A stretch of 37,506 nt of DNA from a virus. Taxonomy: Duplodnaviria; Heunggongvirae; Uroviricota; Caudoviricetes. The stretch lies in IMG/VR virus record IMGVR_UViG_2718218098_000004; one strand, 5' to 3'. Position 1 is the stretch's first letter, and each line of letters begins with the position of its first letter. The position numbers and the translations under genes were made by a program. Shown here piece after piece: positions 2,293 through 29,481 of the stretch. The notes under the pieces are model-generated. The model ran no database searches, was not told where the DNA came from, and saw only the letters and a program-made list of their open reading frames with translations.

Positions 2293-2553
2293 ATGTACAG
2301 CAAATACGACGAGGCGCAGTTTCACTTGAGACTTCCGCATGAACTTCACGCGAAAATTAAGCAGCGTGCGAAGATGAATAACAGGTCGCTGAACTCAGAG
2401 ATAATTGCAGCGATTGAAGAATCATTGGATAAACAAAGCTCTGCATCAGTTTACATTGACGATGCAGAGCGTATGGCAGAACAACAATCTGATATGGTTA
2501 AGAAAATTGTCTTTGATACGCTCAAGGAGCTATATAAAAAAGACAGCAGCTAA
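2293..2553 (+). CDS. mnt: Mnt-like ribbon-helix-helix repressor (86 aa)
   Basis: C-terminal segment NDAERMAEQQSDMVKKIVFDTLKELYKK closely resembles P22 Mnt; N-terminal beta-strand region FHLRLP is RHH-like but diverged; only the last 86 codons of track ORF 1894-2553 are used because the upstream part overlaps the tailspike gene. Confidence 0.75.
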   Translation: MYSKYDEAQFHLRLPHELHAKIKQRAKMNNRSLNSEIIAAIEESLDKQSSASVYIDDAERMAEQQSDMVKKIVFDTLKELYKKDSS

Positions 2554-2573
2554 CCATCAGTTACGGAGGATTT

Positions 2574-2651
2574 ATGCAAAGAGATATGCTGAACATTGCG
2601 TTCTACATATTTGGTTTTTGGACGTTCCTGGTGTTTGCGAAGCTATTCTGA
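2574..2651 (+). CDS. Candidate 25-aa hydrophobic peptide MQRDMLNIAFYIFGFWTFLVFAKLF directly downstream of mnt
   Basis: GGAGG 3 nt before ATG at 2574; one predicted transmembrane helix; overlaps the 3' end of the convergent ejection-protein gene by 9 nt; below the 60-aa track cutoff. Confidence 0.3.
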   Translation: MQRDMLNIAFYIFGFWTFLVFAKLF

Positions 2652-5036
2652 CAACGCATCAGACTTGGCACCCTGAGTAAGGGCGTTAATGGCCTTTTGC
2701 GCCTGCTGCATGGCTTTCTCAAACGCTGTTGATCCGCGTGGGGTGTTTGCCATTCGGAGCATTGCATTTCTGAATGGCTCGCTCTCATAGGCGCGAGTAA
2801 GAAGTCCGTAGCTTACTGCTGCGCCAGTTGTCGCCGGGTTCATTGCCGTCCCATATCCGATAATGAACGGGATGGTTTGCTGCCCTGTTGGTGTTGTTAC
2901 TGCCGCTTTTGCTGCCTGCTGAGTGGACTGAAGGTAGTTTTTCAATCCTTTCAGATAAGCGGCTTCCTGACCTTTAAATGTGATGCCAGTCTGGTTTTGC
3001 AGGATGTTAAGCTGTCGAAGGAACTGGTCAGGTGAACCACCTGATTTCTCTATCGCCTTTCCAATGATGCCATTGCGCATTTGCGCTCTTCCAACGCGAC
3101 CAACTGAGTTATACAGCGTCTTAATTTCCGATTTGTTCTTGCTGAATAGCATGTTGTTGACAACTTCCGGCGTCAGGTCGCCTTTCATGAGAACATTCTT
3201 CAGCCTGGTATTCTTTAGTTTCGCCGCTTCGTCAGCGTATACGGCATTGGCCTGCTGATATTTACGGAGAGTATCGTTGCCAAGATTCTGACCAATGGCA
3301 CCATTGATATCGTCTGTCATCGCCTTGTAAACGCGCTGAATGGCAGCATCGGAACGGTTTGGTAACACTGGTCGTTCACCCTTCACGTCCATTCTGAACT
3401 GGCTGCGCAGATCGCTTAATTGCTTCAAATCCAGATTTACCGGACCATCAGGACCAGCATTGCGAACAAGCTCATCACGATATGACTGAAGTTTTGAAAT
3501 AGTCTCGTTATCAGCAACCTTACCAAGCTTCTGCAGGTTAGATATTTCTGTATCAATCTGCTGAATTGCTCGCGCAGGCTGAATGTTTACTCCAGCCATA
3601 GCATTCTGAACCTGCTCCAGTCGATTACCGGCGGCACGACGAATTCCTGATGTTTTCGCTTTAAGGCTGTCAATAACAACAGATGGATCATACTCACCGA
3701 ATTTATCAGCAAATCTCTGCACCAACTGGCTTCTCGCTTCCTGTTGCGTTGCTCTCATCCCGCTTGTGCCAGCCAGGGGGATATTTTCCGCTGTCGTCTG
3801 CGCCATTTTCCCGACGCGGGAAGTAGGCTGTAACAGGTCTGTGGTGTGCAGAGGAACTCCTTCACGCTCTGCAAATCTGATAGCCTGCTGCGCTTCTGGC
3901 GCAATAGCACCACGAACGCCACGATAAGCAGCACCTAATCCACGTCCGGCAGCGTTAATAGCACCGCCAGCCAGCACACCAACGCCTAAATCGGTAGCGA
4001 GTGCTTCCGCATCATCTTTCATACTGTTTGCAGCAAGTGATCCAACTGCGTTTTCTGCGAGAAGGCGAGTTGCCCCCTGAGCAATTCGACCAGCAAGTGT
4101 TGGTGCCTGTGTTGCCGCTCTCTCAACGCCAGCAGGAGTGAGGTAAGGCAATGCTTCAGCAAATACCCTCCCCTCTGTCGTTTGTGGAGTCAGCGCGCCT
4201 TGCTGAAGGCCAAAGTCCTGCTCTAATCCCTGCGTTGTTACTCGTGGTGCTGGTTGATATGTACCATCGCCAATGCCGAGTTTACCGCCAGCCCAAGCCG
4301 CCGCGCTTGTTACAGCATCAGTGAGTTCAGCAGGTATGTTCGCTACGTTGATTCCTGCCTGTAGTAAGCCGCGCCCGGTTTCAGCAAGTCCATTACCAAG
4401 GTCAGACATTATTCCGCCTTGCTGCTGAACAGGTTTCGGTGCGACAGAACTTACGGGTTGAGGTGGCTGCTGACTGGCTGCCTGCTGCTCAATCTGAGCA
4501 AATGGATTATTTGGGTCTGACTGCACGCCTGATGCCGATACTTGTTCGGATGACTGTGCTTCCAGTTGTGCAAACGGGTTGTTAGGGTCTTGCTGAGGAT
4601 GTACCTTTGCAGAGGTGGCGCGCTGTTCGACTGTTGAGTCTGTCACCGGGTCACCCGCCCATTGAGCAAAGCGATCATCAACGTAACCGCGGCCTTCAGG
4701 TCCTGGCGTATATTCACCACGCTTTGCCTTCATAACGTTGCCGGGACCGTCGTGATAAGCCTGAAGAGCGTCACGCCAGTTACCAAACTGCTGGTACATC
4801 TTTGCCAGATAGCGCGCGCCAGCGTCAGCCTGATATTCGGGGTTTTGCATTTGCTCATCGGTATAACCCATATCACGCCATGTCCCAGGCATGACCTGAG
4901 TCAATCCTACAGCCCCGGCGGAGCTTACTGCGGCAGGGTTGTAAGAAGACTCCTTGGCACCCAGTGCAGTCATCAACCCTTCTGGCACACCGTAACGTGC
5001 GCCAGCCTGCTCTAACAAATCACGGTAATTAGCCAT
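2643..5036 (-). CDS. Ejection/DNA-transfer protein at the P22 gp16 position, with an N-terminal lytic transglycosylase (SLT) domain
   Basis: Position after the gp20-like gene; N-terminus carries SLT-like motifs (AKESSYNP, GLTQVMPGTW, AGARYL); internal duplicated DPNNPFAQ(L/I)E motif. Confidence 0.8.
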   Translation of the reverse strand: MANYRDLLEQAGARYGVPEGLMTALGAKESSYNPAAVSSAGAVGLTQVMPGTWRDMGYTDEQMQNPEYQADAGARYLAKMYQQFGNWRDALQAYHDGPGNVMKAKRGEYTPGPEGRGYVDDRFAQWAGDPVTDSTVEQRATSAKVHPQQDPNNPFAQLEAQSSEQVSASGVQSDPNNPFAQIEQQAASQQPPQPVSSVAPKPVQQQGGIMSDLGNGLAETGRGLLQAGINVANIPAELTDAVTSAAAWAGGKLGIGDGTYQPAPRVTTQGLEQDFGLQQGALTPQTTEGRVFAEALPYLTPAGVERAATQAPTLAGRIAQGATRLLAENAVGSLAANSMKDDAEALATDLGVGVLAGGAINAAGRGLGAAYRGVRGAIAPEAQQAIRFAEREGVPLHTTDLLQPTSRVGKMAQTTAENIPLAGTSGMRATQQEARSQLVQRFADKFGEYDPSVVIDSLKAKTSGIRRAAGNRLEQVQNAMAGVNIQPARAIQQIDTEISNLQKLGKVADNETISKLQSYRDELVRNAGPDGPVNLDLKQLSDLRSQFRMDVKGERPVLPNRSDAAIQRVYKAMTDDINGAIGQNLGNDTLRKYQQANAVYADEAAKLKNTRLKNVLMKGDLTPEVVNNMLFSKNKSEIKTLYNSVGRVGRAQMRNGIIGKAIEKSGGSPDQFLRQLNILQNQTGITFKGQEAAYLKGLKNYLQSTQQAAKAAVTTPTGQQTIPFIIGYGTAMNPATTGAAVSYGLLTRAYESEPFRNAMLRMANTPRGSTAFEKAMQQAQKAINALTQGAKSDALSE
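4490..4600. repeat. Imperfect tandem duplication inside the gp16-like gene (period about 72 nt)
   Basis: gcaaatggattatttgggtc at 4498-4517 and gcaaacgggttgttagggtc at 4570-4589, encoding the repeated DPNNPFAQ peptide. Confidence 0.5.
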
Positions 5037-18085: not shown

Positions 18086-18427
18086 AACCTCGTCTAGTTG
18101 TTCGCCATAGATTCAGTGGCAGGCGGTGACGAGTCCGCTTTTCGGGAGCTACCCTAGCCACTGCTTGATTCTATCCGATGTCTTTCCATCAGTCCGCCAC
18201 CACAAAGAATCTTTTTTGCCATAAGGCAGGAGGTTCATCTTTCAGTGGCTGCCAGTGTTATTTCCCCACTTACTGGCTTGGGTTGTTTCGCTGTACTGCC
18301 GTAACTGGTGGTGCACAGATTTAGTTAAATCTGTTCTCGCCTGAACTATCTTTTACATACCCGGATTGTGGGGATGTAAATCACGGTTTCATTATCAAGC
18401 CCACCCGTAGATAGGCTTTGTAATGAC

Positions 18428-24199: not shown

Positions 24200-25636
24200 T
24201 CAGAATCCTCCTTTCTTCTTGGACTGCGGTTCCTCGCGTTCACGGCGGCGCATTTCAGCAGACTGTTGGTCTGTGTCATAAATAGCGCCATTTGCCTGAA
24301 TGCAATACACCGTGCCGGTATTGCCATGACGATTGAGACGAAGGATTAGTTCGGTTTCACCAGGTGGAACACTGTCATCAAAAGCACCTTCACGATGGAT
24401 CCCCACCCAATAATCGCAATCCTGTTCAATCTGCCCTGTATCTCGTGAGTCACTTGGTAATGGGCGTTTATTGGTTCGGCTTTCCAGTGCGCGGTTAAGC
24501 TGTGTCAGAAGCACAACAACGCAATCAAGCTCTTTGGCAATGTTCTTCAGTCCTTTGGTGATCATGCCGTAAGCAAGGTCGTTGCGATCGGCCTTCTCAG
24601 CGGTCATTAGTGTCAGGTAATCGACCAGAATCATGCCAACACATCCTTTTTCTCGCTTGATTCGACGGCTTTCGCTGACGATTTGAGCCAGAGATAATCC
24701 AGGCGTGTCGTCGATGTAAAGCAGGTCGATTTCACTCAAGCGATTGGCTGTTTCGATCGCCCTGTTGAAGTCACCATCGTAATCACCCTGATAGCCGTCA
24801 TCAGCGTCATTTGTCGCCGGAAGGTAAAAAATATTCGGGTTAACACCTGACTTCTGTCCTACCAGTTTTTCCAGTATCTGGTCACCGGGCATTTCAAGGC
24901 TGAACATCAGAGCGGGCTTTTTCTCATGCACTGCGCAGTTGATTGCCATCTGGCTGTATAGCGTCGTTTTCCCCATCTTAGGGCGAGCGCCAATGACAAA
25001 CAGAGAGCCTTTCACCAGGCCTTTCGGTGACAGCATCCTGTCCAGCGATGGGATCCCTGTGCTCATTCCTCGTTGTTCGCCTGACGGGTCAAATCGCTTC
25101 TCAAGGTCGCTAACCCAGTCTTCCATGACCTCACCAAATGAGCGAAGGCCGCGACGCGATCCGGTTTTTGCATGGTCTGTCAGTTGCGTGAAAATCGACT
25201 GAATAGCTTCGTACTTCTGCGTTGCAGTCATTCCGTTGCGGGAATAGAGCAATTCCGTCGCTTCAGTCATGCGGTTGATGGCGTAGCGTTCCATTGCGGT
25301 TTCACGAACCTGCATTGCATAGGCAACGATGTTTGCTGCGCTTGGCGTGTTCTTTGCGATCTCAGCGATATAAGCAAAACCGCCAACAGACACCGTTAAC
25401 GATTTACGCTCCAGTTCATCGAAAAGCGTCAGGCCATCTACTGGCTTTTGCTCCCGGTGCATTCTGGTTATTTCTTCGAAAAGGATTTTGTGTGGTCGGC
25501 TGTAAAATGAATCGGGCTTCAGCATCGCCAGAACTTTCTGGACGCGCTCACTGCTGTCATCATCCAGAAGCAATCCACCAATCACCGCCTGCTCTGCCTC
25601 GATGCTATGGGGCGGCGCATAAAAATTATCGGTCAT
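24200..25636 (-). CDS. Replicative DNA helicase (DnaB family; P22 gene 12-like)
   Basis: DnaB N-terminal domain plus Walker A GARPKMGKTT; start placed at the ATG at 25634-25636 preceded by GAGG. Confidence 0.9.
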   Translation of the reverse strand: MTDNFYAPPHSIEAEQAVIGGLLLDDDSSERVQKVLAMLKPDSFYSRPHKILFEEITRMHREQKPVDGLTLFDELERKSLTVSVGGFAYIAEIAKNTPSAANIVAYAMQVRETAMERYAINRMTEATELLYSRNGMTATQKYEAIQSIFTQLTDHAKTGSRRGLRSFGEVMEDWVSDLEKRFDPSGEQRGMSTGIPSLDRMLSPKGLVKGSLFVIGARPKMGKTTLYSQMAINCAVHEKKPALMFSLEMPGDQILEKLVGQKSGVNPNIFYLPATNDADDGYQGDYDGDFNRAIETANRLSEIDLLYIDDTPGLSLAQIVSESRRIKREKGCVGMILVDYLTLMTAEKADRNDLAYGMITKGLKNIAKELDCVVVLLTQLNRALESRTNKRPLPSDSRDTGQIEQDCDYWVGIHREGAFDDSVPPGETELILRLNRHGNTGTVYCIQANGAIYDTDQQSAEMRRREREEPQSKKKGGF

Positions 25637-26453
25637 CGTGTTCACCCTCACGAACTTTCAGGTAGGTATTGTCGTTAAGCAGGAAATCAAATCCCTTTTT
25701 GTGCCAGACGGTTCCGCGTTGATGGTTTGGACGCTCTTCGAACATCCATCGGCAATTTTCGCCTACGTAGCTCAAATAATTTCTCCAGTCCTGCATCGTG
25801 AACCCATGTCCGTCAAGCTGGCGGGTTATCACTCCGGCTTTGCGCCAGAACGTTCGGATCTGGTTTTTACGCTTGTCATTCAGTGCGCGGATTCTTGGCG
25901 CTTCAGGAAGGATTTCGTGGTAAGCATCGACAACATCCTGACAGCTAACGGAAGGTTTTTTCTTGTCAGACTTTTTGTCTGCTGTGGCACTCTCTAATAC
26001 GTCAGTATTAGAGATATTATTTATATTATTGTTTATGGACAACCGTTGGACAACCGTTGGACAATCTCCGCTGAGAGCCGCACCATTACTGGTGTTTGCG
26101 TTGGACAACCGTTGGGCAACCGTTGGAAAATTTTTTGCCTGAAAATCGTCATATTTAACGATTGTAAACAGGCTAAATTTCTTCCCCATCGAGCAAATAT
26201 TAAGCATCCCTTTCGACTCAAAAGTCCGTAATAAGCTCCGAACTTTGTTGTCGGGGATGAATGTTTCTCTGACCAGCGACGGGCGTCCAGTTATCATCTG
26301 ACCGCGATCAACAGTTATCGGACCGATATCCGTATTGACGACAGTAGATTCGTGATTAGCCTTGAGGATTAAGTGAAGCCAAAGATGTACTGCCTGAGAG
26401 TCCTTATAGAGCCTGCTGTCCATAAACTGGCGGTGTATAGAGACATACCCCAT
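25626..26453 (-). CDS. Replication initiator protein (lambda O / P22 gene 18 analogue) containing the origin iterons
   Basis: Position between c1 and helicase; iterons inside the coding frame (PTVAQRLS / PTVVQRLS repeats); AGGAGG 8 nt before the ATG at 26451-26453. Confidence 0.8.
   Translation of the reverse strand: MGYVSIHRQFMDSRLYKDSQAVHLWLHLILKANHESTVVNTDIGPITVDRGQMITGRPSLVRETFIPDNKVRSLLRTFESKGMLNICSMGKKFSLFTIVKYDDFQAKNFPTVAQRLSNANTSNGAALSGDCPTVVQRLSINNNINNISNTDVLESATADKKSDKKKPSVSCQDVVDAYHEILPEAPRIRALNDKRKNQIRTFWRKAGVITRQLDGHGFTMQDWRNYLSYVGENCRWMFEERPNHQRGTVWHKKGFDFLLNDNTYLKVREGEHDDR
25985..26036. other. AT-rich region flanking the iterons (candidate DNA-unwinding element of the origin)
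   Basis: Run of A/T-rich sequence (aatacgtcagtattagagatattatttatattattgtttatgg) next to the iteron block. Confidence 0.5.
26038..26127. repeat. Origin iterons: four direct copies of CAACCGTTGG(A) in two tandem pairs about 45 bp apart
   Basis: Copies at 26040-26050, 26051-26061, 26106-26115, 26117-26127. Confidence 0.75.
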
Positions 26454-26538
26454 ACTGGATGCCTCCTGATTTTGTACAGGGTTATGCCTGTAATCAGCTA
26501 ACTTAACGACGCCCATGTTTCACTCCTGCTTTGGCTAG

Positions 26539-26664
26539 TCAGTAAACACCAACAAGGCGCTCTGCGAACGCCCTGTTATTTGCTGCGGCTACCACTAATC
26601 CCTCAGGTGAATCAGGGTGTCGAATCTCTTCTTTTTCCTGGTATTTCTTACGACGTTTTGTCAT
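26539..26664 (-). CDS. Candidate small ORF (41 aa) between c1 and the initiator gene
   Basis: GGAG 6 nt before ATG at 26662-26664; P22 has a small ORF at the same position as I recall. Confidence 0.3.
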   Translation of the reverse strand: MTKRRKKYQEKEEIRHPDSPEGLVVAAANNRAFAERLVGVY

Positions 26665-26698
26665 AATTACTCCTGTGGATTGATCCACTCTTTCTACA

Positions 26699-26977
26699 TC
26701 AGGCCTCGAAGAATTCGCCGTTCTTCGGGGCTTTTTCTTTTGTCAGCATTCTGGCTACTTTCTTAGCCAGTTCCGCCAACTCCTCGTCTTCAACACCCCA
26801 TTCAAGAACAGCCAGAAGCATTCCCATTTTGGGGATGAAGCTGTCTTTCCATCGCGAAATTTGCGATTCATTAATCCCTAACGCGTCGGCAACCTTTCGC
26901 TGACCACGTACAGCAATTCGATTCAGGATGTTGCTTGTAATTGCATTCGCTTTCTTGCGAGTACTTGTAAGTTCCAT
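26699..26977 (-). CDS. c1: CII-family transcriptional activator (P22 C1-like)
   Basis: From MELTSTRKKANAITSNILNRIAVRGQRKVADALGINESQISRWK resembles P22 C1 / lambda CII; start at the ATG at 26975-26977. Confidence 0.85.
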   Translation of the reverse strand: MELTSTRKKANAITSNILNRIAVRGQRKVADALGINESQISRWKDSFIPKMGMLLAVLEWGVEDEELAELAKKVARMLTKEKAPKNGEFFEA

Positions 26978-27034
26978 ATGTAAGTATTTCCTTAACAAAT
27001 AAGAAGTTATGCGCATCAACTTATGCGCGTTGTA

Positions 27035-27078
27035 TTCCCGCATTTCGGCGGGAATGAGGACCATGACTGTTAAAGAGC
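27035..27078 (-). promoter_or_regulatory. nutR: boxA GCTCTTTAACA followed by boxB hairpin UCCCGC-CGAAAU-GCGGGA in the cro-c1 interval
   Basis: Identical boxA and boxB sequences recur on the plus strand downstream of PL. Confidence 0.7.
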
Positions 27079-27085
27079 AATTTGC

Positions 27086-27271
27086 TTATGCCGCTTTGCG
27101 GTAAGCGCTTTCTTGATACTTCAGGGCGCCAGCTGTAACGACTTCCAGTCGATAGGCGTCTTTCTCTGGGATGACTTCCTTCCACTGAGAGACTGCTGCG
27201 TCGCTAATGCCTAACGCTTTAGCTACAGCACGCTGGGTTCCGAAGTGGTCGATAACATCTTTCTTGTACAT
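27086..27271 (-). CDS. cro: Cro repressor (P22 Cro-like)
   Basis: 61 aa, near-identical to P22 Cro as recalled (MYKKDVIDHFGTQRAVAKALGISDAAVSQWKEVIPEKDAYRLE). Confidence 0.9.
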   Translation of the reverse strand: MYKKDVIDHFGTQRAVAKALGISDAAVSQWKEVIPEKDAYRLEVVTAGALKYQESAYRKAA

Positions 27272-27285
27272 AGACTCGCTCCGAA

Positions 27286-27351
27286 ATTAAAGAACACTTA
27301 AATTATCCACTAAAGGAATCTTAAGTCAAGTTTATTTAAGATGTCTTAACT
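27286..27351. promoter_or_regulatory. Right operator: three 18-bp P22-type sites, OR1 27286-27303, OR2 27309-27326, OR3 27334-27351
   Basis: Each fits ANTNAAG-N4-CTTNANT: ATTAAAGAACACTTAAAT, ACTAAAGGAATCTTAAGT, ATTTAAGATGTCTTAACT. Confidence 0.8.
27301..27329 (-). promoter_or_regulatory. PR promoter for cro (-35 TTGACT, 17-bp spacer, -10 ATAATT), overlapping OR1 and OR2
   Basis: Hexamers read on the minus strand upstream of cro. Confidence 0.7.
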
Positions 27352-28002
27352 ATGAAAACTCAATTGATGGGAGAGCGCATTCGCGCTCGGAGAAAAGAAC
27401 TCAAGATCAGGCAGGCCGCACTTGGAAAGATGGTCGGCGTGTCTAATGTTGCCATATCTCAGTGGGAACGCTCTGAGACAGAGCCAAATGGAGAGAATCT
27501 TCTCGCCCTGGCTAATGCGTTGAAGTGTTCCCCTGACTATCTGATGAAAGGAGAGGAAAGTCTTTCAAACATTGCCTATCACAGTAGGCATGATCCAAGA
27601 GGGTCATACCCTCTGATTAGCTGGGTGAGCGCAGGATGCTGGATGGAAGCTGTAGAACCATATCATAAGCGTGCAATAGATAACTGGTACGATACAACCG
27701 TAGCCTGTTCAGAAGATTCGTTTTGGTTGGACGTGAAGGGAGACTCAATGACGGCTCCGGCCGGTCTCAGTATCCCTGAAGGAATGATAATACTCGTCGA
27801 TCCTGAAGTAGAGCCGCGTAACGGGAAACTGGTAGTTGCAAAGCTCGAAGGAGAAAACGAGGCAACTTTCAAGAAGTTAGTTATTGATGCAGGCAGGAAG
27901 TTTCTAAAACCACTTAACCCACAATATCCGATGATCGAGATCAACGGAAACTGCAAAATCATCGGCGTAGTTGTCGATGCAAAACTAGCAAACCTTCCAT
28001 AA
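27352..28002 (+). CDS. c2: C2 repressor (P22 C2, lambda CI family) with LexA-like autocleavage domain
   Basis: 216 aa, near-collinear with P22 C2 as recalled, including the HTH GKMVGVSNVAISQWERSE and the C-terminal peptidase region. Confidence 0.95.
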   Translation: MKTQLMGERIRARRKELKIRQAALGKMVGVSNVAISQWERSETEPNGENLLALANALKCSPDYLMKGEESLSNIAYHSRHDPRGSYPLISWVSAGCWMEAVEPYHKRAIDNWYDTTVACSEDSFWLDVKGDSMTAPAGLSIPEGMIILVDPEVEPRNGKLVVAKLEGENEATFKKLVIDAGRKFLKPLNPQYPMIEINGNCKIIGVVVDAKLANLP

Positions 28003-28028
28003 GGGGGCATTCGCCCCTTTTTTTTATT
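28003..28028 (+). terminator. Intrinsic terminator immediately after c2
   Basis: Stem GGGGGC/GCCCC(U) with loop AUUC followed by nine U residues. Confidence 0.8.
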
Positions 28029-28093
28029 TCCTTTAAAAATCAAAGCCAAACTTAAGTTACGAAAGAAAATTTAAGTTTTCTTCAAAAATACTC

Positions 28094-28122
28094 TTGACCA
28101 TTAATTAAAGAGATCTTAAATT
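28094..28122 (+). promoter_or_regulatory. PL promoter (-35 TTGACC, 17-bp spacer, -10 TAAATT) with OL1 operator ATTAAAGAGATCTTAAAT (28104-28121) in the spacer
   Basis: Hexamers and an 18-bp site fitting the same pattern as the OR sites; a weaker OL2 candidate lies at 28069-28086. Confidence 0.7.
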
Positions 28123-28168
28123 TAAGCCATCAGCAGGACGCTGGAAGCCAAACGGAACAGATTGGCAG

Positions 28169-28209
28169 GCTCTTTAACATTGATGGGATTGTCCCGCCGA
28201 AATGCGGGA
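28169..28209 (+). promoter_or_regulatory. nutL: boxA GCTCTTTAACA (28169-28179) and boxB hairpin UCCCGC-CGAAAU-GCGGGA (28192-28209), about 40 nt downstream of PL
   Basis: Same boxA and boxB as nutR. Confidence 0.7.
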
Positions 28210-28773
28210 ACTGAGTTTAACCAAACAGGAGGTGCCGTAATGGTGCACTAACGCGGTTAGACCGCAGCCGAAAGGCAATGCAGCAGTAATGATGCTGCCC
28301 CGAGTCGCGTAATGGCGAGCAGGTTTAGCAGGCCGATGTGAGGGTAAATAAGGGAACATGCTCCGGAAAGGCAGCGCGAATGCCAGACGCGCACCGGTTA
28401 TCAGCGGCTAATAAGCGACAGAGACTCAAGGGCATGAGCGCGCTCACTGCGAGAGTGTGAGTCAAATAGTAGTTGGCTTTGGGGTGACGTGAAGTGCAGC
28501 TGCACGACGGCAACCGGAAGATAAGCACCCGGCGCGTCACCGCCAAAGTCAATTCCATAGGCGTTATGCAGCCGCCACCATATTCAAGAAAGCTGCACAA
28601 GAGGTAGGAGGATTTATGTGAATGCATAACTTCAAAACCGAGGTTAATTAAATCTCTCGATCCGAGCATCAACCTATTAGGTGGCGAGATGCTCTTTCTG
28701 CCCCTCAGTTCGAGGGGCCAGAAACCACTTTGCAATCACTATCAATTCCAAAGTTGTTTCATCGGAGGTCAAC

Positions 28774-29073
28774 ATGACAGTAGTCATTACATATCTGGCT
28801 GACGATAACGCCAGAAATCGCCGCAGAGCACGCAGACAGGCTCAACGTGAACAGACGATGCAAGAGCAGCGACTGGCGCGAAAAATTGCGCTAAAGCTCT
28901 CTGGTTGCGTCAGAGCAGATAAAGCAGCATCACTCGGAAGCCTTTGCTGCAAGAAGAAAGAAGAAGTCGAGCGTAAACAGAACCGTATTTACTACCGCAA
29001 GCCACGCAGTGAAATGGGGGTGACTTGTGTTGGTCGCCAGAAAATGAAATTAGGCAGCAAACCACTTATTTGA
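28774..29073 (+). CDS. N: N-family transcription antiterminator (99 aa) with arginine-rich motif
   Basis: N-terminal NARNRRRARRQAQREQ; C-terminal RKQNRIYYRKPRSEMGVTCVGRQKMKLGSKPLI resembles lambda / phage 21 N; GGAGG 5 nt before the ATG at 28774. Confidence 0.85.
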   Translation: MTVVITYLADDNARNRRRARRQAQREQTMQEQRLARKIALKLSGCVRADKAASLGSLCCKKKEEVERKQNRIYYRKPRSEMGVTCVGRQKMKLGSKPLI

Positions 29074-29326: not shown

Positions 29327-29454
29327 ATTTGCTTTGGAATAAGCAACAGAATAAACACTGCACTGTGTATTCATTCCAACGAGTGAATACACGGAGCAAT
29401 GTCGCTCGTAACTAAACAGGAGCCGACTTGTTCTGATTATTGGAAATCTTCTTT

Positions 29455-29481
29455 GCCCTCCAGTGTGAGGGCAATTTTTTT
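29455..29481 (+). terminator. tL1-like intrinsic terminator between the 80-aa and 322-aa genes
   Basis: Stem GCCCTC/GAGGGC with loop CAGTGT followed by AATTTTTTT. Confidence 0.65.

Follow-up and report, generated by a model that had tools for sequence, protein, structure and literature searches.

The window analyzed here (the whole 37,506-nucleotide stretch of IMG/VR record IMGVR_UViG_2718218098_000004) is a P22-like (Lederbergvirus) E. coli prophage, and its closest public genomes are the P22-like coliphages N7, IME10, and CUS-3 (97–99% identity). Two short elements, one on each strand, lie within an immunity region with the canonical lambdoid layout (Table 1). The segment that spans the cII-like, cro, and repressor genes up to PL is 82% identical to P22 immC, and this homology ends at about 28157. 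The terminator scan recognized no tR1 by sequence downstream of the minus-strand element; a tR1 there may be Rho-dependent, and such a terminator is unreadable from sequence.

Table 1. Genes, promoters, nut sites, and leader features around the immunity region (positions in the window)
Feature	Position	Strand	Evidence or remark
O-like replication gene	25626-26516	-	
Small ORF	26539-26688	-	
c1 (cII-like activator) gene, first gene downstream of nutR	26699-26977	-	Pfam Phage_CII, E = 1e-42
nutR boxB hairpin, UCCCGC-CGAAAU-GCGGGA	27036-27053	-	Identical to annotated HK620 nutR
nutR boxA, GCTCTTTAACA	27068-27078	-	Exact match; identical to boxA of phage 21 nutL and nutR; 10/11 bases shared with P22 nutL
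cro	27086-27271	-	Pfam P22_Cro, E = 9e-28
PR-like promoter, TTGACT-16-GATAAT, driving cro, nutR, and the c1 (cII-like) gene	27302-27329	-	Consensus scan, 10/12 matches; collinear with annotated P22 PR
Prophage repressor gene (P22 c2/lambda cI type)	27352-28002	+	Pfam HTH_3 and Peptidase_S24
Terminator right after the repressor gene	28001-28020	+	Consensus scan
PL-like promoter, TTGACC-17-TAAATT	28094-28122	+	Consensus scan; collinear with annotated P22 PL
nutL boxA, GCTCTTTAACA	28169-28179	+	Exact match; about 40 nt from inferred PL start
nutL boxB hairpin, UCCCGC-CGAAAU-GCGGGA	28192-28209	+	Identical to annotated HK620 nutL
Inserted structured leader RNA with 5′ Shine-Dalgarno (SD) sequence and mini-ORF; in the N leader, outside the nut site	28224-28462	+	Covariation model
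Mini-ORF, AUG GUG CAC UAA	28241-28252	+	Preceded by SD
Long hairpin in the N leader (about 20 bp)	28471-28553	+	-41 kcal/mol, z = -3.3
N gene (99 aa): arginine-rich motif at residues 11-27, then phage 21/lambda-like body	28774-29073	+	PHROG 271
Intrinsic terminator past N and the DUF7446 gene; candidate tL1-type target of N-modified polymerase	29453-29474	+	8-bp stem (5 G-C pairs), then T7

The pattern GCTCTTTAACA-N(8–20)-TCCCGCCGAAATGCGGGA, a boxA followed by a boxB hairpin, has exactly two matches in the window, at 28169–28209 on the plus strand and 27036–27078 on the minus strand. It had no match in 100 dinucleotide-preserving shuffles, and none is expected by chance. When searched separately, the 18-nt hairpin has just these two copies in the window at up to 3 mismatches, and the 11-nt boxA only two at up to 1 mismatch. 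In addition, a repeat search independently found the boxA and boxB parts as inverted repeats (I1, 19 nt, 100%; I3, 18 nt, 89%). The first-pass annotation had reported an identical boxA and boxB once per strand, and these searches confirm it; its plus-strand coordinates were right, and the only numerical slip is the start of the minus-strand copy, which lies at 27036 rather than 27035.

A 6-bp stem closing a 6-nt loop is the predicted fold of the 18-mer (-9.7 kcal/mol, z = -2.9), and flanking AU/AU bases lengthen the nutR stem to 8 bp by two more A-U pairs. The isolated hairpin alone stands out, as the whole nut contexts fold no more stably than shuffled sequences (z = -0.15 and -1.17). The boxA–boxB spacer is 12 nt in nutL and 14 nt in nutR, which have total lengths of 41 nt and 43 nt, respectively. 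The nut sites match no Rfam family, either in a gathering search of the whole window or in an E≤10 search of 26950–28800; the latter returned only chance-level hits, in the cI–PL spacer and at 28700–28763.

In both copies, the boxA consensus precedes the short boxB hairpin within the spacing of about 8–15 nt expected of lambdoid nut sites, and each copy reads in the same sense as the transcript crossing it, PL for the plus strand and PR for the minus strand. One site lies between PL and N, and the other between cro and the cII-like gene, the gene identities being given by Pfam. The minus-strand copy begins 8 nt past the cro stop codon and ends about 60 nt before the cII-like start codon. Its earlier description as lying “between cro and c1” is right in the P22 nomenclature only, where c1 is the homologue of lambda cII. 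The placement of the plus-strand copy about 40 nt downstream of PL agrees with a transcript start near 28129, obtained by alignment to the annotated PL and transcript start of P22. The proposed correspondence to lambdoid nutL and nutR thus holds, in view of the sense orientation on the PL and PR transcripts and the identity to annotated features of HK620. The sequence, position, and orientation of the two sites and their identity to annotated nut sites are established. We conclude with high confidence that they represent nutL and nutR and belong to an “HK620 type” of lambda-style N antitermination module, which this P22-like E. coli prophage carries.

The N protein (99 residues) matches PHROG 271, “anti-termination protein N-like” (E = 3e-37). 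Residues 34–99 are 94% identical to phage 21 N, and in the antitermination complex structure 6GOV, residues 63–99 align to the C-terminus of lambda N, the part that binds polymerase (E = 1.5e-4), with a weak alignment also over residues 13–27. The homology of the N body is therefore established, and N has both the conserved C-terminal RNA-polymerase-binding segment and the N-terminal arginine-rich motif of lambdoid N proteins. N scores 19.5 bits against Pfam N_peptide, under the curated cut-off of 27.9, and matches no NCBIfam model; the family assignment accordingly rests on the direct homology to the N proteins of phage 21 and lambda. Residues 1–33 (MTVVITYLADDNARNRRRARRQAQREQTMQEQR) are common to the N proteins of HK620, HK140, HK630, and mEpX2, and not to that of phage 21. 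The phage 21 identity, the 6GOV match, and this HK620-type segment bear out the view of N as a mosaic, in which a distinctive arginine-rich N-terminus is joined to a lambda/phage 21-like C-terminus. The motif at residues 12–27, NARNRRRARRQAQREQ, aligns gap-free with those of phage 21 (TAKSRYKARRAEL), P22 (NAKTRRHERRRKL), and lambda (DAQTRRRERRAEK), and in this alignment it has no Trp corresponding to residue 18 of the lambda-type N.

How might the HK620-type loop be recognized? The first-pass annotation had noted that it differs from the lambda type, and the alignment with known N/boxB pairs that it had proposed upholds this: CGAAAU is distinct from lambda GAAAA/GAAGA, P22 GACAA, and phage 21 CUAACC. 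A lambda-type boxB has a G-A-A-R-A loop on a 5-bp stem closed by U-A, whereas the window boxB has a 6-nt loop on a 6-bp GC-rich stem. It also departs from the C[UAAC]C hexaloop of the phage 21 type, being C[GAAA]U, although the layout is alike, with a 4-nt turn and a pyrimidine-pyrimidine flank. In published structures, N peptides read GNRA-like penta- and hexaloops: in the phage 21 complex, the UAAC of the CUAACC hexaloop forms a GNRA-like turn flanked by a C-C pair, while the P22 and lambda boxBs form pentaloops with one extruded base (PMC12550061). Another source, PMC6023938, contains nothing about loop types. The C-GAAA-U loop is most simply read, from its sequence, as a genuine GAAA tetraloop of the GNRA class, flanked by a non-canonical C·U pair.

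In the lambda system, boxA is the binding sequence for host NusB/NusE (S10), and the N-modified polymerase ignores terminators. By analogy, we infer N binding, Nus dependence, and the terminators overcome for the HK620-type module, together with the loop geometry, and propose the following course of events. On the PL and PR transcripts, boxA would recruit NusB/NusE (S10), and boxB would follow 12–14 nt later. The arginine-rich helix of N (residues ~11–30, core NARNRRRARR) would then bind boxB, while the phage 21/lambda-like middle and C-terminal parts of N would bind NusA and RNA polymerase. The resulting looped complex would allow the polymerase to read through downstream terminators, namely the intrinsic one after N and a presumed Rho-dependent tR1 after nutR.

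Does boxB travel with the arginine-rich motif? Among about 200 related loci, the boxB hairpin never varies. In the 86 loci retrieved through N, it is invariant in about 170 copies, and changes occur only in the spacer and at one boxA base. As the hairpin is invariant, its stem displays no base-pair covariation. The motif linked to it, ...NARNRRRARR..., is found whatever the repressor type or the rest of N. The neighboring immunity types include P22-c2-like, HK620-cI-like, and, in one locus, lambda-cI-like, and by nutR–nutL distance the loci form at least five classes (about 1090, 1631, 1675, 2220, and 2800–2925 nt). These several size classes, together with the lambda-like cI in one locus, indicate that the module is independent of repressor specificity. 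Moreover, N proteins with three different bodies have the same ~30 N-terminal residues: a phage 21/lambda-like body (the window prophage and CUS-3), a hybrid with a P22/H-19B-like end (HK620), and a body that is P22-like from residue 31 (mEpX2).

The association holds from both sides. All 26 of the nutL-carrying phage records in GenBank also carry the motif (23 by tblastn; mEpX2, with 3 records, by direct translation). In a reciprocal scan of 120 loci seeded on the 18-nt hairpin alone, each nutL copy with enough downstream DNA precedes an N with the core (N/T)A(R/K)NRRR(A/E)RR. The first-pass annotation had held that a role in antitermination would be refuted if close relatives with the same N lacked the element; in this comparison, the testable nutL copies all precede a motif-bearing N. 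On a finer scale, the motif and boxB do not covary: boxB is unchanged with the variants R20H, A23T/D, A13T, and R17S, and with the diverged motif TAKNRRRERR. Two controls agree with this linkage. In phage 21, the same N body and a homologous boxA and spacer go with a different motif and different hairpins, and in P22, whose immunity region is related, both the N and the hairpins differ.

The sole true exception is mEp213, which has a lambda-type nutL and a lambda-like N, plus an intact second N of the HK620 type further downstream. This second N has no cognate nut site: all that precedes it is a broken hairpin, GCCCTCCGAAATGCGGGA, lacking a boxA; thus, the pairing is not absolute. Five other apparent exceptions were rejected. 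In one locus the contig end cuts the region and boxA has one substitution (L022), in another the upstream region is rearranged (L037), and in a third the hairpin is unrelated and boxA is absent (L222). The fourth is only a pattern miss rather than a pairing failure (L307), and mEpX2 escaped tblastn simply because of the divergence of its N beyond residue 30.

The strict co-inheritance of hairpin and motif is established, and the same boxB and the same motif occur in all testable loci, forming an HK620-type specificity group. This is good comparative evidence, drawn from sequences, for a cognate N–boxB pair whose loop is of a type of its own. Across different repressors and three N bodies, the hairpin has been inherited jointly with the first ~30 residues of N, which pins the probable specificity determinant to that short segment.

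Is this specificity private? The HK620-type pair may constitute a fourth natural class of N-peptide/boxB, never biochemically characterized, in which a Trp-less helix reads a GAAA tetraloop with a C·U flank and no extruded base, and which does not cross-react with lambda, P22, or phage 21; we put the chances of this at about even. Full-text searches of the literature found no experimental work, whether binding or reporter assays, on the HK620-type N or boxB. The sites could instead be true nut sites with a shared specificity, such that this N also acts on lambda- or P22-type boxB, or their N proteins act on the HK620-type boxB. The motif core A-x-N-RRR-A-RR is indeed close to lambda A-Q-T-RRR-E-RR and P22 A-K-T-RRH-E-RR in the gap-free alignment, all of these loops would fold in a GNRA-like manner, and mEp213, where the HK620-type N is a second N beside a lambda-type nutL without an intact cognate boxB, hints at cross-use. 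Franklin (2004) and Cocozaki et al. (2008) reportedly described overlapping boxB requirements for lambda and P22. However, in more than 100 testable loci the HK620-type boxB never occurs with another motif at nutL, and the motif occurs without this boxB only in mEp213. The lack of a Trp18 counterpart in the motif and of a fifth, extruded base in the loop also speaks against cross-use, and we regard a shared specificity as rather unlikely.

Two further explanations deny the sites their role in N binding, or make it secondary. The conserved segments might mainly be “boundary sequences”, patches of homology at module junctions that are kept for mosaic recombination rather than for an RNA function. 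The CUS-3 record labels the whole cI-to-N interval “bsq5; boundary sequence”, and junctions do lie right at the sites, as the P22 homology stops at about 28157 and boxB itself contains the mEp213 junction. This explanation nevertheless leaves several features without a cause: the element is duplicated in inverted, transcript-sense orientation exactly where nutL and nutR would lie, boxA fits the consensus, the hairpin is stable, and the motif is co-inherited. We consider it very improbable; moreover, recombination and RNA roles are not mutually exclusive. Slightly less credible still is the idea that the hairpins are terminators or RNase processing sites. They are stable and GC-rich (-9.7 kcal/mol), but neither copy precedes a U-run, the terminator scan called neither, and a terminator 40 nt past PL and before N would be self-defeating. 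The nut-site reading stays the preferred one. If the pair also proves to be private, it would be usable as it stands for orthogonal RNA tethering and would give studies of the evolution of motif–RNA specificity a natural intermediate.

The N leader contains further RNA structures. Two insertions flank a conserved long hairpin and together account for a leader of 564 nt, as compared to 107 nt in HK620. This hairpin was found by BLAST in 64 of the loci compared, and by its location it is the positional analogue of the RNase III hairpin in the lambda N leader. The first insertion, of roughly 240 nt, starts 15 nt past the nutL boxB and is absent from HK620, N7, and CUS-3. It has no Rfam match even at E≤10 and no annotation in any record. 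At least 120 viral contigs contain homologues, as do phages of Escherichia, Klebsiella, Hafnia, and Providencia, and the set analyzed here comprises 105 unique homologues. The SD and AUG are present in 93 of these 105 copies, and a stop follows after only 1–3 codons in 87.

Downstream of the mini-ORF, a 9-helix model with 38 pairs is 97% paired in 65 sequences below 93% identity, as compared to 28–37% for shifted-pairing controls. Compensatory changes occur in 21 of the 38 pairs, and none of 500 shuffles was as good. As a single sequence, the inserted RNA has an unremarkable fold (z = -0.8); the support for its structure comes from covariation, not from single-sequence stability. A coding interpretation was rejected, as the variability has no 3-periodicity (0.178/0.193/0.179) and 21 pairs have compensatory changes. 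The prophage sRNAs of Tree et al. 2014 were also rejected as candidates, since they are 51–60 nt long and unrelated.

The inserted RNA lies on the strand of the flanking operon in all nine annotated phage genomes examined. A nutL-like boxA precedes it in 9 of 103 copies, and an intrinsic terminator directly precedes it in 26 of 103, where it lies in what is apparently the late-promoter (PR′) leader. In the Klebsiella phage RothC, for instance, a homologue is located just after Q. The inserted RNA could represent a new family of cis-acting leader RNAs in antiterminated phage operons. Ideas for its role as a 5′ leader module of such operons include an mRNA stabilizer, a ribosome-loading start-stop, and an anti-Rho element, and it may merit a separate follow-up.

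Among GenBank phage records, 26 contain the nutL segment, some of them from Stx1a- and Stx2c-converting phages, and so do 498 of 5,426 complete E. coli genomes (about 9%). The module is thus already known and common: it has been annotated in HK620 since 2001 and is widespread in E. coli prophages. The mosaic of a P22-like immunity region and a phage 21-like N body is likewise already in GenBank, as CUS-3, IME10, and N7. The main finding, that the prophage uses a standard N/nut early antitermination switch, therefore adds very little that is new. Its value is modest: it offers a clean natural experiment in mosaicism, and it marks an uncharacterized boxB loop type for work on RNA–protein recognition. 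The adjacent unannotated structured RNA, with its conserved start-stop mini-ORF, is probably the more interesting lead.

Among the known systems, lambda shares with the window the circuit logic, the homologous C-terminal RNA-polymerase-binding segment (6GOV), and the motif core A-x-x-RRR-x-RR. It differs in its weaker boxA, CGCTCTTA, its 5-bp stem, and its GAAAA/GAAGA pentaloop, and the window motif lacks the counterpart of Trp18. In P22, the N-terminus of gp24 begins with MTV(V)ITY, as does the window N, and immC is 82% identical. The P22 nutR hairpin, ACCGC-C[GACAA]C-GCGGU, looks like a close cousin of the window boxB, having the CCGC/GCGG stem core and the pyrimidine flank in common with it. 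However, P22 has a GACAA pentaloop with an extruded C, its other hairpin is GCGCU-GACAA-AGCGC, its motif is NAKTRRHERRRKLAIER, and most of its N body is unrelated.

Phage 21 has nearly the same N body (residues 34–99), an identical boxA, spacers homologous to those of the window, and the same hexaloop layout, with a 4-nt turn and a pyrimidine-pyrimidine flank. Judged by its sequence, the window boxA is the strong consensus found in this phage. In contrast, the phage 21 motif, GTAKSRYKARRAELIAERR, differs from that of the window, and its hairpins, UCUCAAC-CUAACC-GUUGAGA and UCACCU-CUAACC-GGGUGA, have the loop C[UAAC]C and stems unlike those of the window.

The closest match is HK620 (NC_002730). 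Its repressor differs from the window repressor, and the C-terminus of its N is P22/H-19B-like, whereas that of the window N is phage 21/lambda-like, as in CUS-3 and IME10. Within residues 1–33, the two N proteins differ at a single position (T31 in the window, A31 in HK620), and their arginine-rich cores are identical. Related carriers of the HK620-type nutL, nutR, and N are HK140, HK630, mEpX2, CUS-3, IME10, and N7, and in HK140, HK630, and mEpX2 the window sites match features labeled “putative Nut” or “putative Nut boxA site”. In HK620 itself, the gene order is the same as in the window, and the sites annotated as “nutL; putative N-utilization leftward” and “nutR; putative N-utilization rightward” are base-for-base identical to those described here.

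Between the boxB hairpin of nutL and the N start codon, the window carries an inserted structured RNA element of about 240 nt, which starts 15 nt past nutL boxB. The 5′ part of this element, comprising a Shine–Dalgarno sequence, an AUG codon and a mini-ORF of 1-3 codons, is conserved among the homologues. The region 3′ of the mini-ORF has a nine-helix RNA structure that is 97% paired. This structure is supported by covariation: compensatory changes were found in 21 of the 38 pairs, and equally good shuffles were obtained in 0 of 500. At least 120 viral contigs carry the element, and the hosts of these phages include Escherichia, Klebsiella, Hafnia and Providencia. The element is located 3′ of nutL-like sites, or immediately 3′ of late-leader terminators. 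HK620, N7 and CUS-3 all lack it. It has no family in Rfam 15, and is unannotated in RefSeq, where it is present in 62 of 5426 E. coli genomes. The gathering-level Rfam search of the whole window returned no match besides the int-alpA RNA.

Features of the N leader, the operator regions and the int-alpA locus in the window
Feature	Position	Strand	Description
Inserted structured RNA element	28224-28462	+	~240 nt
Mini-ORF of the RNA element	28241-28252	+	AUG GUG CAC UAA
Long N-leader hairpin	28471-28553	+	~20 bp; -41 kcal/mol, z = -3.3
Second N-leader insertion	28560-28773	+	Variable, ~213 nt; 3′ of the long hairpin, ahead of the N ribosome-binding site
Repeated, partly palindromic AATTAAAG...CTTAAATT segment	27285-27347		Flanks PR
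Repeated, partly palindromic AATTAAAG...CTTAAATT segment	28065-28123		Flanks PL
Strong terminator-like hairpin	26701-26733	+	On the strand opposite the cII-like gene, over its 3′ end
int-alpA RNA (RF02996)	18102-18164	-	Rfam, 45.1 bits; gathering score 35.8

Among the relatives, the N start codon lies 107 to 564 nt away from boxB. The second leader insertion is found with 78-99% similarity in a subset of them; in CUS-3 it is taken in by the feature “bsq5; boundary sequence”, while in HK140 it is overlapped by an annotated 42-aa hypothetical ORF.

How do N and its nut site vary in other phages? Phage mEp213 (NC_019720; locus L086, 1718-3773) possesses two N genes. The first is lambda-like and follows a nutL of the lambda type (GCCCTGAAGAAGGGC). 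Some 1.5 kb further downstream lies the second, an intact N of the HK620 type; the structured RNA element precedes it, but of the nut site there is just a broken boxB (GCCCTCCGAAATGCGGGA), without boxA. The recombination joint lies within boxB. Hafnia phage yong1 (locus L090, about 2440-3198) presents a further variant, in which the boxA GCTCTTTAAAAA, the hairpin GUAUGCC-GAGA-GGUGUAC, the same structured RNA element as in the window and an N-like protein follow in this order. The motif of this protein (MNAKQRCKLRRLERRSEER...GRQKIRGKSIPLI) differs from that of the HK620-type N. The yong1 hairpin has a true GNRA (GAGA) tetraloop, which suggests that tetraloop boxBs also occur outside the HK620 type. 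In the IMG/VR contigs L302 and L312, N is a pseudogene with the frame truncated after about 40-55 aa, the HK620-type motif is kept, and nutL is intact.

The long N-leader hairpin, with BLAST matches in 64 of the loci searched, is analogous in position to the RNase III-sensitive hairpin in the N leader of lambda, and by this analogy it may act in N autoregulation. The annotated oop terminator of P22 occupies the same position as the terminator-like hairpin, and the repeated segments around PR and PL are the counterparts of the P22-type OR and OL operators, respectively.
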